Source of the DNA: Planctomycetota bacterium
GTDB lineage: Bacteria; Planctomycetota; SZUA-567; H5-PLA8
Direction: 5' to 3'
Length of the DNA: 40,295 nt
Assembly (NCBI GenBank): GCA_038227875.1
Contig: JBBRPR010000071.1
Span: 1 to 40,295, forward strand
The notes below the pieces were generated by a model. That model saw nothing but the letters and a program-made list of their open reading frames with translations. It did not search any database and had not been told where the DNA came from. Every line of letters starts with the position of its first letter. The first letter of the stretch is position 1. The translations under genes were made by a program, and so were the position numbers. This document shows, one piece after another, positions 23,614 to 28,653 of the stretch.

Positions 23614-24021
23614 CTACTTCCCGGCAACGTCAAATCGCAACAGCTCCTTATTGGTAAGGTCATTGAAGACGAAACCAATTGTGACCCCCTTGTCTAACAG
23701 TGTTTTTAAATCTGCATTTTTTCGCGTGTCTGCGATCATTTCAGCTTTCGTAGCTTCGAGCGCATCGTTGAGTTCCTTGCCCACCATCTGCAGTTTTGTG
23801 GTGATTGTAAAATTGCACGTCACACGCATTGGGCCAGGCGTAAGACTGTCCATGCGGAGCGCCGCGTTAAGTTGCTGGGGGCACTTGGCGTTGACTTCGG
23901 AGCACTCTTTCTCAAGTTGGCTCTGAACACTGGGTCTGAACACGCCAGCCATCGCGAGCGAAACGCCGATCAGAATTCCAATCCCCTTCAGAGTTGCATT
24001 GCCGCGCGGCATTCTGTTCAT
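23614..24021 (-). CDS. Small exported or membrane-anchored hypothetical protein
   Basis: GAGGGG RBS before ATG 24021, a hydrophobic N-terminus and a N..CP...D/N...RMDS-type motif. Confidence 0.75.
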   Translation of the reverse strand: MNRMPRGNATLKGIGILIGVSLAMAGVFRPSVQSQLEKECSEVNAKCPQQLNAALRMDSLTPGPMRVTCNFTITTKLQMVGKELNDALEATKAEMIADTRKNADLKTLLDKGVTIGFVFNDLTNKELLRFDVAGK

Positions 24022-24261
24022 ACTGAATTCCCCTCTCAGATAACGGCATAAAAAGTCCACGGAGCGTCGCTGCCGAAGCGAGAAACTCCGTCCCGATGCC
24101 CAACTGGGTCGCGGGAAACTCAATTCGTATTTACGTGAAACGAAACGCGCGAACAATATAGAAGGGCTAAAAATGATGAATAAAAGTGATTCACGAGTGC
24201 GCACGGAACAGGTGCACCTATAGGGCAGATTTCAATCCAGCGAATCCGCAATGAGGTCGCC

Positions 24262-25881
24262 CTATTTAGCAGGTAGCTTTAGCTCAAGCACCTTCATCGC
24301 CTTCGTCTTAATATCCACCACGCAGATGCGGTGGTTGTCGGTGTCGGCGATGTAGAGATGGCCGTCCAGGAACGTCAGACCGCCGGGTTCGTAGAAGCGC
24401 GGGGTTTTCTCGTCGCCTGGGCCGGGTTTGCCGTCGCCCAGAAATGTCGCGACGGATTTCTTCTCCGGGTTGATGGTTTTGATTTTGTGGTTGTACGTGT
24501 CGGTGATGTAGAGCGTGCCGTCGACGTACACAACTCCCAGCGCGTGCTGCAATTTTGCCGTGCCGAGCACTCCGTCGATGTCTCCGAAGGCGAAGAGTCG
24601 GCCCTGCTGCAGGTTGGGGAAACCGATTAGCGTCCGCGCGGTTTTCTCTTTCAGATCCAGCGCGCGAACGGCGGAGGCTTCACTGTCCGCAACGTAAAGC
24701 GTGTTGCCGTGAAGCGACAGGCCGCTGGGTTGCGCGTAGGCAGATTGCGCGAACGGGCCATCGACGATGTCTTCCCGGCCGTTGCCGGCCAGAACCTGGA
24801 TCTGCTGCTTCGGCAGGTCCATCACCCAGATGCGATGGTCGCCGGCCATGGCAATGTAGAGCGTGTTGCCATCCTCGCTGAGCGCCAGATCCCACGGCGA
24901 ATCGAGCGTCGTGGTGCGCGCCGGTCCGCCCGATGGGGCGCGGAGCTGCACGCCGGTGCCGGCGATCGTTTCCACGGTTTTCGCCTTGAGGTCCACTTTG
25001 CGCAGCGCCTGATTTTCACAATCGGCGACGTAGAGCGTGTCGGCGATGACGGCCATGCCGTGCGGCATGTGGAAATTCGCAGTCTTGTAGTCGCCGTCCT
25101 TCAACGCCGATTGTCCGCCGCCGATAACATCGGTGACGACGCCGTCGATGCCGCTGACGAGGATGCGATTGTTGTTGGTGTCGGCGATGAAGAGCCGCTT
25201 GGGCTCGGCTTGAGCCACGATCTTGGCCGGGAATTTCAGCAGGGTTCCCGGACCCGGTTCCGGCTTGCCGATGACCTTGTCGCGGTCGATGGCTTTCTTC
25301 GCGTCGTAGACTTTGATCAGCGCTGCGATGTAAGCGTCGAGGACTTCGTATTTACCTTCGCCGCTGACGGCACCGACAAACTTGCCTTCCGGATCGATCA
25401 GCGCGAGGGTCGGCCAGGATTCGACGGAGTAGCGATTCCAAATTTCAAACTTGCTATCATTGGCGATGGGGTGGGTGAGTCCGTAGCGCTGCGCGGCCTT
25501 GCGGATATTCTCCGTTGCGCCTTCGTTGGTGAACTTTGCCGAATGGATGCCGACGACCGTCAGCTCCTTGCCATATTTCCCTTCCAGCCGTTTCAGGTCG
25601 GGAAATATGTGGACGCAGTTGATTCACCCGAACGTCCAGAAATCGAGCAGGACGATCTTCCCTTTTAGGTCCGCAATCTTCAGGGGCTTGTCGGTATTGA
25701 TCCACGCCTCCGCACCGTCAAAATCTGGAGCGGCCTGGCGGGCGGGATTGTTGATCTGGGCGAGAAGTTCATCGTCGGCTGCACCGAAAACGGAACGCGC
25801 CGGAAACGCCAGCACCGCGTTGAACAGCAGGACGACAGCGGCGGTCCGGGCGATTCGCCCCTTATTAGTGATCACGGTCAT
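24262..25881 (-). CDS. Thioredoxin-like plus NHL-repeat protein (NHLRC2/SOQ1-like architecture) with in-frame TGA, probable selenoprotein (UINC)
   Basis: One frame from ATG 25881 (GGAG RBS) with a single TGA at 25626-25624: [23 protein letters not shown]...VGIHSAKF...SWPTLALIDPEG, followed by six NHL blades. 539 aa with readthrough. Confidence 0.9.
25572..25609 (-). promoter_or_regulatory. Candidate bacterial SECIS hairpin
   Basis: mRNA CAUAUUUCCC-18 nt-GGGAAAUAUG forms a perfect 10-bp stem starting 14 nt after the UGA. Confidence 0.6.
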
Positions 25882-26071
25882 GGTGTGAACTCCAGAGTGG
25901 CCAGCGAAAAGGCTATCCTTTTGGGTCATAGGGCGCGAGCGAAAAGAGGTTCGTTATCCATGGAATGCAACGCTGAACGGACCGAATTTATTCCGGATCA
26001 ACTGGGAAAAGTGTGGCCGGACGCTATCGTTAGCGGTTATCCCGAAAGTCCAGTTGAGGAGAAGCTTACCG

Positions 26072-26599
26072 ATGCGTCGCGCCCTGGTCATCCTGCCGCT
26101 GTTGCTCTGTGGTTACGTTCAGGCTGAAACCGTGTTCATGAAAGACGGTCAGTCGGTGGTCGGCGACGTGGTCTGGCGCGGCCGCGCGGGCGTTGAGCTG
26201 CGCATCGCGCCGGGATGTGTAGGCGACGGCAAGAAAGTCTTCATCGAAACGAGCAAGATCGAATCGGTCGGTGACTGTGCGGACTGCGGCGGGGAGTACG
26301 GTATCAACGAGGTCCCGGAATCGCGCCTGGAATTCGAAAAGCGCATGCACGAACGCGGCCGCGTCTATTACAAGGACCGCTGGGTACGCGCCGATGAACG
26401 GGACGCCGACGAAGCACGCCTGAAGGCCGAGAAGGAAAGGGCCGCCGAAAAAGCATCCGAGAAGATTGTCCCCCTGACGCCGGCAACGCCGCGCGCGGCG
26501 CCGCGCAGCACGCCGGCACCCGACAAAGCGCCTGCGACTCCGTCGACGACAACAGCTCCTGCTCCCGCGCCAGCTCCGGCCACTCCGCCGGGGAAATAG
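26072..26599 (+). CDS. Secreted hypothetical protein with Pro/Ala-rich tail
   Basis: GAGGAG RBS, signal peptide VQA|ETVFMKDG..V.G, and a G.V.YKDRWV motif. Confidence 0.8.
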   Translation: MRRALVILPLLLCGYVQAETVFMKDGQSVVGDVVWRGRAGVELRIAPGCVGDGKKVFIETSKIESVGDCADCGGEYGINEVPESRLEFEKRMHERGRVYYKDRWVRADERDADEARLKAEKERAAEKASEKIVPLTPATPRAAPRSTPAPDKAPATPSTTTAPAPAPAPATPPGK

Positions 26600-26602
26600 C
26601 GC

Positions 26603-27271
26603 TTACTTCTGCGGCTTGCCGCGGCCGAAGTCGATCACTTCCGAAATGACCGTCAACGCCGTGATGGTGTTTTCGAAGTGCTTGCTGACGGGCGGCGCCT
26701 TCTTATTGCCAAATTGAATCGCAGGAAGCTGTACGCCGTCGTCCTGCGCCTTTGAGATTTTCACAACGCCGTCGAACGGCACATCCGCAGAGATCACCTT
26801 CTGATACTTGGCGGTCTTCACGTATTCCACAGTGAGTCCGTTGGACGAGGTTGAAAAGCTCCGCAATGTCGTCTCGCCATCCCAGGTTTCACAGGCGGCG
26901 GTGCTGGAACCAATTTTTCGCGTCTCGGTTTTCGTTTTCTTCATGTTCAACTCAAGCCCTGGAACCGCCGGCCCCGGGTCTCCCGCGCGGTGGTATTTCC
27001 GCGTGTTTTTGTGAGCTGCGTCTGAATCTTCCACGGTGACGAAGTCGTCCGAGATCTCCTTGATCTCTCGGCGGCTGGTGGTTCCGCTGGGATTTTTGAC
27101 GACGATAAAATCACCGACGAGCGCCGTCTTCACCCACGGTTCGAAAGGAAGTTCGCCCGTTTGCCCGTTCACGGACCCCGGCGCCACTCCGACGAATGAG
27201 TTCGCGGCGTGGAGCTGTGTGGGAATTAGAACGACACCGGTCAACAGCACATTTAGAAGGAGTAGTCTCAT
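26603..27271 (-). CDS. Secreted hypothetical protein
   Basis: GGAG RBS before ATG 27271, signal peptide LHA|A, and a beta-rich body with S.DVPFDGVVK. Confidence 0.75.
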   Translation of the reverse strand: MRLLLLNVLLTGVVLIPTQLHAANSFVGVAPGSVNGQTGELPFEPWVKTALVGDFIVVKNPSGTTSRREIKEISDDFVTVEDSDAAHKNTRKYHRAGDPGPAVPGLELNMKKTKTETRKIGSSTAACETWDGETTLRSFSTSSNGLTVEYVKTAKYQKVISADVPFDGVVKISKAQDDGVQLPAIQFGNKKAPPVSKHFENTITALTVISEVIDFGRGKPQK

Positions 27272-27375
27272 ATCGTCTCCGTGAATACGCGTGAAAGATG
27301 CGCACACGTGTGACGCGAATAGTGCGGTTGCATTACAGCAAAAGTTGAATTCGCGGAGCCACCGAACGCCGCGCG

Positions 27376-28653
27376 TCAGCGGTGACTCGACTTCTGCGGC
27401 GGCGGCGGAAAATCTTTTCCCGCTTCGTTGTGCTGCACCGTCCGGCCGCCGGATGCGATGGAACGCGCGGCCAGATCGGCGATCAGCACGCAGCGCCGCG
27501 CTTCTTCTGGCGTGGCGCGCTGCAGGGGATCGCTGCCACCCAGGCCCAGGATATCGGCAATCAACGCGATGTCCGCACCACCGTGACCATGCTCGCCGGA
27601 ACCCAGCTCGCATTTGATGTGCTCGGTCTTGCCGTCTGGGTTGAGCACGCGCAAGTACACTTGGCCGTCATAGGAATTCAGTCCCAGTTCCGCGCGCCCC
27701 AGGGTCCCGGTGAAATGGAAGTACCAGAATTCGCGCGGCGAAAACGTGACCAGCGAAAACGCGGCCAGCGCGCCTTTCTTGTATTTGATCCGTACCGTTT
27801 CATGATCGTTGACCGTGTGCCGGTCGGAGAAGACGCACAGATCGCGCACGTAACCGTCTTCGCCTTCCGCTTCGCGGTACATGCGCCGGTAGACGCCGTC
27901 CCATTTATCGATATCGAAAACGTGCGGGCACTCCTTGGCGACCGCACAGCCTTCGCACTTTTCGGCGTGATTCAGTTCCGGGCGCGGCGTGTAGAAACTG
28001 CGTCCGCCGGCGGCTGAGACTTCCAGGGGTTCATCGTCGAGAATCCAGTTCATCACATCCAGATGATGGCAGCACTTGTGGTTCATCAGGCCTGCCGACT
28101 TCGAAAAATCGGAGTGCCAGCGGTGGAAGTAATCGCCGCCGTGCGAGTAATCGAGCACTTCCGCGGCTTCGACGGAGATCACCGTGCCGATCCGTCCCGA
28201 CCGAACCAGTTTCGCGCAGGCCAGCGTGTAATCGTGATAACGCATGTTGTGGCCAACGCGCACTTCCTTGCCCGTGTGCTTCATCGCGGCGATGACGCGG
28301 TCGCATTCCCACGCGCTGGTGGCCAGCGGCTTGTCGACGACCACATTCAATCCAGCATGTAAAGCGGCAACGATTGTGTCGGCATGCGTGTAATCGGGGG
28401 TGGTGATGATGCACCAATCGGCCTTCACCAGGCGCTGAGCTTCCGCGATGTCTTTGACGACCGGCAGCTCGGGCAGGCCGATTTCCTTCGCGCCCACGCG
28501 GCCGCGCGTCAGATTCGAATCGACCAGCGCTGAAACTTCCGCGCGTTCTGCAAATTCCGGCAGGCCTTTATTTTTCATGCCGCGCAGACCTTTGGCGAAG
28601 CAGCCCAGCCCGCGGTTGCCCAGTCCGACAATGATGAATTTGATTTTCTTCAT
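27376..28653 (-). CDS. Gfo/Idh/MocA family NAD(P)-dependent oxidoreductase
   Basis: IVGLGNRG Rossmann motif, TTPDYTH, VDKPLA, GHNMRY, HKCCHHLD and HGHGGAD. Confidence 0.95.
   Translation of the reverse strand: MKKIKFIIVGLGNRGLGCFAKGLRGMKNKGLPEFAERAEVSALVDSNLTRGRVGAKEIGLPELPVVKDIAEAQRLVKADWCIITTPDYTHADTIVAALHAGLNVVVDKPLATSAWECDRVIAAMKHTGKEVRVGHNMRYHDYTLACAKLVRSGRIGTVISVEAAEVLDYSHGGDYFHRWHSDFSKSAGLMNHKCCHHLDVMNWILDDEPLEVSAAGGRSFYTPRPELNHAEKCEGCAVAKECPHVFDIDKWDGVYRRMYREAEGEDGYVRDLCVFSDRHTVNDHETVRIKYKKGALAAFSLVTFSPREFWYFHFTGTLGRAELGLNSYDGQVYLRVLNPDGKTEHIKCELGSGEHGHGGADIALIADILGLGGSDPLQRATPEEARRCVLIADLAARSIASGGRTVQHNEAGKDFPPPPQKSSHR

Follow-up and report, generated by a model that had tools for sequence, protein, structure and literature searches.

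A gene with an in-frame TGA in a Planctomycetota bacterium very probably encodes a selenoprotein of the SOQ1/NHLRC2 thioredoxin and NHL propeller family

A stretch of 40,295 nucleotides from a Planctomycetota bacterium (GTDB lineage Bacteria; Planctomycetota; SZUA-567; H5-PLA8; assembly GCA_038227875.1, contig JBBRPR010000071.1, positions 1 to 40,295; hereafter the window) carries on its minus strand a gene for a thioredoxin-like protein with a beta-propeller, the frame of which is interrupted by a TGA codon, and this gene is analysed here as a candidate selenoprotein gene. The frame runs from ATG 25929, or ATG 25881, to TAG 24264-24262 and contains exactly one internal stop, a TGA at 25626-25624 in the context FG-TGA-INC. 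Two listed open reading frames (ORFs), 25624..25929, the end of which includes the TGA, and 24262..25218, share this one frame with no further stop between them, and the second begins at 25218 because this is the first GTG accepted as a start by the ORF lister. The initial annotation, made from the DNA letters, had placed both ORFs in the same frame with a single TGA in the gap, had put this TGA on the N-terminal Cys of a CxxC motif and had seen no decay in the rest of the gene; retranslation confirmed the frame, the alignment of homologues agrees with the position of the TGA, and no other stop or frameshift was found in 1.6 kb. Read through, the frame encodes 555 aa from ATG 25929, with selenocysteine (Sec) as residue 102, or 539 aa from ATG 25881, with Sec as residue 86. 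ATG 25881 is taken as the start because a GGAG at 25893-25890 precedes it at a spacing of 8 nt and no such motif lies ahead of ATG 25929. The predicted selenoprotein coding sequence therefore occupies 24262..25881 of the minus strand (539 codons and TAG; 555 aa from the alternative ATG 25929), and the UGA at 25624..25626 (minus strand) is its predicted Sec codon, which would give residue 86, the N-terminal residue of a UxxC motif (U-I-N-C). The window gene itself has been called as a 318-aa piece, and its near relatives stand in public protein sets as proteins of 440-450 aa that start after the TGA, under names such as 'thioredoxin-like domain-containing' or 'YncE beta-propeller'. Gene callers have almost certainly split one gene wrongly into fragments at the TGA, as had been foreseen for annotation pipelines.

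Both halves around the TGA belong to one domain architecture, in which a Pfam Thioredoxin_8 match at residues 90-183 spans the TGA and is followed by NHL repeats. The thioredoxin-like domain, of the TlpA/DipZ type (25285..25734, minus strand; approximately residues 66-215 in the 555-aa numbering), scores 55.4 bits against Thioredoxin_8 with further matches to AhpC-TSA and Redoxin; it scores 42.4 bits against PF00578 and also matches PF08534 and PF13098. The six-bladed NHL beta-propeller (24274..25242, minus strand; approximately residues 230-552 in the same numbering; Pfam NHL, 110.9 bits) matches the NHL propellers of SOQ1 (7djm, E 3.7e-67) and NHLRC2 (6g7w, E 9.2e-64). The best solved relatives by sequence are the lumenal region of SOQ1 (7djj, E 1.1e-113, residues 66-552) and NHLRC2 (6gc1, E 2e-107, residues 66-549), and the alignment to both runs unbroken through the two domains. 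An AlphaFold model obtained with a 14-sequence alignment (predicted local distance difference test score, pLDDT, 93.2; predicted template modelling score, pTM, 0.91) consists of a thioredoxin fold followed by six four-stranded blades, with the redox motif between strand 27-33 and helix 38-41 and the Sec just before the first helix of the fold. Superposed over both domains, the model gives a template modelling (TM) score of 0.95 to 7djk (root-mean-square deviation 1.7 Å, 41% identity) and of 0.94 to 6gc1 (39% identity), and the thioredoxin-like domain is predicted to be packed against the propeller as in the crystal structures.

The features that mark the SOQ1/NHLRC2 family are present: a motif of the (C/G)-C-(I/V)-N-C type, here FG-U-INC, a cis-Pro loop, and a six-bladed NHL propeller after the thioredoxin-like domain. 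Alignment A3 shows no variation at C40, at N39 or at the W-P of the cis-Pro loop. The frame ends directly after the propeller, 453 residues past the active site, and the C-terminal domain (CTD) with its Cys pair is absent; this is no bar to membership, because the CTD is described in PMC6107167 as not conserved across the family. The gene is the sole gene in its genome to combine thioredoxin and NHL domains, the other 18 matches being NHL-only except for one short thioredoxin-domain match. The placement in an NHLRC2/SOQ1-like family with a CCINC-type motif, made in the initial annotation, holds by sequence and by predicted fold.

From ATG 25881 the protein begins with MTVITNKGRIARTAAVVLLFNAVLAFPARSVFG, followed by AADD (25783..25881, minus strand), and this segment has a basic n-region (K, R, R), a hydrophobic core and a 15-residue Kyte-Doolittle maximum of 2.23. 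It plausibly represents a signal peptide of the general secretory pathway, judged from sequence features, and would direct export with cleavage at a putative site behind it. Most close homologues possess a comparable N-terminal hydrophobic segment, four Sec forms of an 'NVAQL' type have none, and one further Sec form of that type has a membrane anchor. The earlier description of the N-terminus as signal-peptide-like is strengthened by hydrophobicity, charge and the comparison of homologues, with export and the cleavage site remaining predictions. The N-terminal segment of the window protein is free of Cys. The Sec form of the related genome G001 (locus L024) begins MRRAIALGAC…, with a lipobox-like L-G-A-C, and the orthologue of G010 (L025) has …LLFCGC…, so it may be that some orthologues are lipoproteins and not soluble proteins of the periplasm.

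The identity of the residue at the TGA column was read in homologues at increasing distance from the window's genome (G000). Among 40 relatives, a full-length orthologue was found in five genomes. The orthologue of G001, which represents another genus of the same family, is 66% identical over residues 47-553 and carries a TGA at the same column as G000. Cys stands at this column in G010 and G002 (58% and 57% identity), which read FG-C-INC, and in G017, which reads YC-C-INC; the G017 row comes from a genome flagged as unpublished and is just one among the Cys rows. In a sample of 401 Planctomycetota genomes, 96 possess an orthologue at E ≤ 1e-40. A TGA appears in 17 rows, all of which were read, and it lies exactly at the first Cys of CxxC in 16 of the 96 orthologue-bearing genomes, including G001, with the motifs FG-U-INC, YG-U-INC, YC-U-INC, YC-U-VNC, FG-U-VNC, FC-U-INC and SC-U-INC. 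All 26 of the rows that were read among the 79 stop-free ones have Cys. Scanning species-representative genomes of all phyla gave 80 loci, and the column is TGA in 17 (eight from Dehalococcoidia, three from other Chloroflexota, two from Gemmatimonadaceae, and one each from NC10, Dormiibacterota, Planctomycetota and an unclassified bacterium) and Cys in 63. In the homologues read, the residue aligned with the TGA is always Cys and never Trp, and the first position of the motif is Gly in the window protein and in many Cys forms. The TGA at 25626-25624 is not a chance stop, given that it is the sole stop in the frame and that the column holds Cys or TGA in every homologue read. The search for TGA or Cys at this column that the initial annotation had proposed thus yields the pattern taken to mark a selenoprotein, an in-frame UGA that is aligned with Cys and conserved as UGA in other taxa.

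Two orthologues carry a stop outside this column. In the remaining one of the 17 rows with a TGA, the orthologue L075 of genome G140 (G140:C11), the motif is CC-INC and the in-frame TGA (…WLNSP-TGA-NVSLKELRG…) precedes the active site by some 30 codons, ahead of the domain yet inside the stretch aligned to the query. The gene may be disrupted, may start further downstream or may have another explanation. The Sec-form orthologue L064 (G244:C339) has one TGA and one TAG within the match, the TGA being at the Sec column.

The machinery for Sec insertion, which had been named as a test of the prediction, is complete in the window's genome, a draft of 9.34 Mb in 176 contigs that is 88% complete with 4% contamination. 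A tRNA-Sec was found with 71.5 bits (cut-off 47) and the anticodon TCA, and selA (530.7 bits), selB (307 bits, or 343 with the C-terminal part) and selD (301.6 bits) all exceed their curated cut-offs. The selD match (G000:C10:153331-154248) lies within an open frame of 750 aa, compared with a SelD model of 311 positions, which suggests a fusion protein; Ndh-SelD fusions are described in the GOS paper (PMC2398784). In the phylum sample, selA is present in 16 of 16 genomes with a U form versus 288 of 401 overall, and Cys forms are found both with selA (G002) and without it (G010, G082, G053). G000 possesses a second selenoprotein gene, SelW-like (Pfam Rdx, 64.2 bits; G000:C19:35022-35231, locus L157:201-440), which has C-T-L-U by way of an in-frame TGA and ends at another TGA. 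The use of TGA as a sense codon throughout the genome was rejected, since TGA terminates three of ten window ORFs checked as well as the SelW-like gene.

A candidate bacterial Sec insertion sequence (SECIS) hairpin, a feature absent from the initial annotation, lies directly downstream of the codon, at 25572..25609 of the minus strand. Read from 25609 to 25572, it comprises a 10-bp stem (CAUAUUUCCC/GGGAAAUAUG), a 2x2 internal loop, a 2-bp CC/GG helix and a 10-nt apical loop (UGAAACGGCU), and the spacing from the UGA to the stem is 14 nt. Its folding energy is -17.1 kcal/mol (z = -4.85), and none of 200 shuffles is as stable. In G001 the stem is UAUAUUUCCG/CGGAAAUAUA, with two compensatory pairs relative to G000, a C:G to U:A change at the base and a C:G to G:C change at the top, and the nearest Cys forms have GUGAUCCCC…AAGAAAUAC at the position of the hairpin, which are unable to pair. 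In the phylum sample, the 54 nt downstream of the codon have a mean folding energy of -17.4 kcal/mol in Sec forms (n = 16) versus -6.3 kcal/mol in Cys forms (n = 28), and across phyla the values are -13.2 kcal/mol for Sec forms (n = 17) versus -6.1 for Cys forms (n = 63) and -7.4 for 36 GC-matched Cys forms, in comparisons for which statistical significance is overstated because the relatives are not independent.

Most Sec forms outside the window's clade have another hairpin at the same place, a stem of 6-8 bp closing an AGUU loop (…CGC-AGUU-GCG…), which is found at 14 of the 17 cross-phylum loci (L094, L095, L105, L124-L126, L130, L133, L135, L144, L146, L147, L149 and L154) and also at L070-L074. 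It lies approximately 21-27 nt after the UGA and is encoded by P-Q-L-R or A-Q-L-R. The five 'NVAQL' Sec forms from Planctomycetota all share GCAGUUGC; RNAalifold applied to these five paired the codons of INC with those of AQL without compensatory changes, and a hairpin in fixed register was no better than controls for them. The Sec forms of the SOQ1/NHLRC2 type seem, on these sequence comparisons, to carry at least two hairpin designs, of which that of the window is less widely attested.

The gene is very probably a genuine, mis-annotated selenoprotein gene of the SOQ1/NHLRC2 family, for which the single-stop frame, the homology to that family, the TGA/Cys column, the genes for Sec insertion and the hairpin all speak. 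The proposal of a 539-aa Sec redoxin fused to a beta-propeller, with which the initial annotation began, is supported by the TGA/Cys column, by selA, selB, selD and tRNA-Sec, and by an independent contig. This contig, 321 nt long and from a different study, spans 25522-25841 with approximately 97% identity and nine differences, none of them listed at 25624-25626, so the TGA is kept in independent sequence at the level of contigs; the X2 contigs stop short of covering the site. An assembly or sequencing error in place of a true TGC or TGT would be favoured by the metagenome-type draft and by the possibility that the sole run identical to the window is the one from which it came, and it is made scarcely credible by the agreement of the different-study contig (X3/X4) and by the orthologues of G001 and of 14 more genomes of the phylum, in which this column is likewise TGA. 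Were the TGA a nonsense mutation that inactivated a former Cys-form gene, at most fragments would be made, in keeping with the fragments that gene callers give (318 aa, and 440-450 aa after the TGA in relatives) and with the lack of any RNA run among the listed runs with a match to the window. However, the same codon stands at this column in 16 of the 96 orthologues within the phylum and at 17 of the 80 loci found across phyla, the 1.6 kb contain no other stop or frameshift and are conserved on both sides of the codon (66% to G001, residues 47-553), the hairpin shows compensatory changes and the genome has complete Sec machinery, and a pseudogene is highly improbable.

It is also conceivable that the UGA is read through without Sec, by a near-cognate tRNA that inserts Trp or Cys, or by Cys on tRNA-Sec under scarce selenium. 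UGA is the leakiest stop codon, and in some systems Cys can take the place of Sec at its codons when selenium is limiting, both of which lend some weight to this possibility. However, U forms are found only in genomes with selA (16 of 16), the aligned residue is Cys and never Trp, the SECIS-like hairpin accompanies TGA and not TGC or TGT, and TGA is a normal stop in the genome, which leaves non-Sec read-through with very little probability.

Several observations weigh against the selenoprotein reading. The hairpin folded with its flanks (73 nt) has a z-score of only -1.46, and a scan of 25450-25700 against Rfam with E up to 10 gave no family match. For the 11 related Sec forms, the register of the window hairpin pairs 72.7% of cells versus 33-51% when the register is slid, and compensatory change is seen at three pairs (pair 27-46 is CG in four and GC in four), in counts that use the structure drawn from the window's own sequence and are biased towards the hairpin. 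RNAalifold applied to the 11-sequence Sec alignment did not recover the hairpin and gave an unrelated 4-pair helix instead, so that the candidate has the form of a SECIS stem-loop with moderate covariation and no recovery by RNAalifold. The SECIS candidate of the window's clade is also less well corroborated because many other Sec forms use the AGUU hairpin. The Sec genes of G000 lie on contigs of the draft other than the window's, and their co-residence with the window gene therefore depends on binning. The selenoproteome seen in G000 is small, since no in-frame TGA was found in its three FdhA-like genes, its one CMD-domain gene or its 11 other AhpC-TSA-domain genes. To these are added the lack of an RNA run among the sequencing runs listed as matching the window, the lack of a conserved neighbour gene that could hint at function among the loci examined, and the report on human NHLRC2 (PMC6107167), in which no insulin-reductase activity was found and the authors expressed doubt that the protein takes part in thiol-disulfide exchange.

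The Sec forms differ from the Cys forms in the C-terminal domain, which comprises approximately 140 aa and was scored by proxy as more than 550 residues after the active site. By this proxy, it is present in 0 of 16 Sec forms versus 20 of 28 Cys forms in the phylum sample and in 1 of 17 Sec forms versus 34 of 63 Cys forms in the cross-phylum scan, giving 1 of 33 Sec forms versus 54 of 91 Cys forms overall. The lone CTD-bearing Sec form, L148, has the motif FG-U-VNC, 590 aa after the site and a weak downstream fold (-8.8 kcal/mol). A phylogenetic tree from a quick search splits with 99% support into 19 rows that lack the CTD, namely all 16 U forms and the Cys forms G179, G010 and G002, and 25 Cys forms. 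The pair G010 and G002 forms the sister group of G000 and G001 (support 100), and the tree requires at least 2-3 switches between U and C. Given this grouping, the association of Sec with the lack of a CTD largely reflects one old subfamily, not many independent events.

Among known systems, SOQ1 of Arabidopsis (7DJJ/7DJK) resembles the window protein in lying beyond an energy-transducing membrane, SOQ1 in the thylakoid lumen and the window protein by way of its predicted signal peptide. SOQ1 differs in possessing Cys instead of Sec, and the first position of the motif is Cys in SOQ1 and Gly (FG-U-INC) in the window protein. SOQ1 also has an N-terminal HAD domain, a membrane helix and a CTD, whereas the window protein ends after the propeller. 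For SOQ1, a redox-active thioredoxin-like domain and methionine sulfoxide reductase (Msr) activity of the lumenal domains are reported, with CcdA as the proposed donor, and the CTD is reported to hold the Msr activity and to take electrons from the thioredoxin-like domain (preprint 10.1101/2024.11.01.621559). Human NHLRC2 (6GC1, 6G7W) shares with the window protein a CCINC-type motif in the cleft between the thioredoxin-like domain and the propeller, and its biochemical function is given as unknown in PMC6107167. The same source describes no conserved operon for bacterial NHLRC2 homologues, and the same holds for the relatives of the window gene.

The bacterial UxxC selenoproteins of thioredoxin fold follow the same logic as the window protein: Sec replaces the N-terminal Cys of CxxC, Cys homologues occur elsewhere, and a hairpin lies just downstream. 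Sec at the first Cys of CxxC in thioredoxin folds of the TlpA/Prx-like kind is the commonest kind of bacterial selenoprotein, and the known families include 'Prx-like thiol:disulfide oxidoreductase' (PF00578), 'Thiol:disulfide interchange protein' (PF13098), 'Thiol-disulfide isomerase-like' (cd02966) and the Trx-like and Prx-like 1-3 families of the GOS survey (PMC13188914 and PMC2398784). These families are described without an NHL propeller and are set apart from the window protein by their descriptions. The thioredoxin-like domain alone is matched by the C-terminal domain of Mycobacterium tuberculosis DipZ (2HYX, 5CYY; E 1.1e-25, residues 66-214) and by ResA/TlpA (1e-7 to 1e-12). DipZ, ResA and TlpA are extracytoplasmic reductants fed by membrane domains of the CcdA/DsbD type, and they differ from the window protein in having no propeller and only Cys. 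An identity as ResA or TlpA was rejected, at 59.8 bits versus a cut-off of 170 for ResA and 35.1 bits versus a cut-off of 230 for TlpA (NCBIfam NF002854 and NF047696), leaving kinship of fold and superfamily only. The x-C-I-N-C motif of DipZ is SCINC (PMC6107167).

In the proposed mechanism, selenium insertion itself, export, the substrate and the electron donor are presumed. The UGA of the mRNA (25626-25624) would be decoded as Sec by ordinary bacterial recoding, in which SelB, recruited by the hairpin at 25609-25572, would deliver Sec-tRNA(Sec). The product would have 539 aa before removal of the signal peptide and would consist of a TlpA/DipZ-type domain with U-I-N-C packed on a six-bladed NHL propeller. 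After export by the general secretory pathway, the selenolate would attack an oxidised substrate in the cleft between the thioredoxin-like domain and the propeller; candidate substrates, by analogy, are a disulfide, a sulfenic acid or, with SOQ1 as precedent, methionine sulfoxide. The resolving Cys three residues on would then form a selenenylsulfide, and re-reduction could be performed by a membrane protein of the CcdA/DsbD type. One DsbD_TM gene is present elsewhere in the genome (G000:C4:47181-47810, 101.6 bits). As the window protein has no CTD, the direct target of its UxxC site would have to be the substrate itself or a separate partner.

The flanking genes of the window comprise a sulfatase, metF, three hypotheticals and a GFO-type oxidoreductase. 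None of these six neighbours was found by tblastn in the loci of 31 relatives, for which only approximately 1.5 kb of flank each was available, and a scan for terminators and promoters around the gene gave nothing useful. The divergent neighbouring ORF at 26054-26599 (plus strand, 181 aa) has a signal-like N-terminus and a low-complexity tail rich in Pro, Ala and Thr, with no Pfam match, and the ORFs at 23614-24204 and 26603-27613 (both minus strand) likewise have no Pfam match.

The recoding mechanism is standard and, as far as checked, a Sec form of the SOQ1/NHLRC2 family is not on record. No such form was found in the literature searched, so the doubt expressed in the initial annotation as to whether Sec forms of the family had been reported still stands; the BSepDB family table, which lay outside the search, may list the family under a generic thioredoxin-like name. 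The terms 'NHL' and 'propeller' are absent from the main texts of PMC13188914, PMC12013277, PMC9312934 and PMC2398784, and 'NHL', the one term sought there, is absent from that of PMC13326102. The motifs CUINC, GUINC, CUVNC and GUVNC gave no matches in four GOS supplement files, where line wraps could hide them. A widespread selenoprotein family has been missed in annotation because its relatives are stored as N-terminally truncated proteins.

The natural replacement of Cys by Sec is a classic marker of a redox-catalytic residue. In the sequences compared here, the Sec points to the second position of the motif as the catalytic nucleophile in the chemistry of SOQ1/NHLRC2 proteins. A broader joint reading, which is tentative and on balance doubtful, is that the second position of CC-I-N-C is the true nucleophile of all SOQ1/NHLRC2 proteins, including the human one, that the two-domain bacterial forms are stand-alone extracytoplasmic reductases acting on a propeller-bound substrate, which could be protein methionine sulfoxide or sulfenate, and that Sec compensates for the missing C-terminal relay domain. 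With this gene, a selenoprotein predicted to be exported is added for Planctomycetota, where selA was detected in 288 of the 401 genomes sampled. The Sec lies within the motif of a family in which the human protein, NHLRC2, linked to FINCA disease, has no known activity and the plant protein, SOQ1, was only recently proposed to be a methionine sulfoxide reductase, and the bacterial Sec forms would offer a tractable system in which to test the chemistry of the family.

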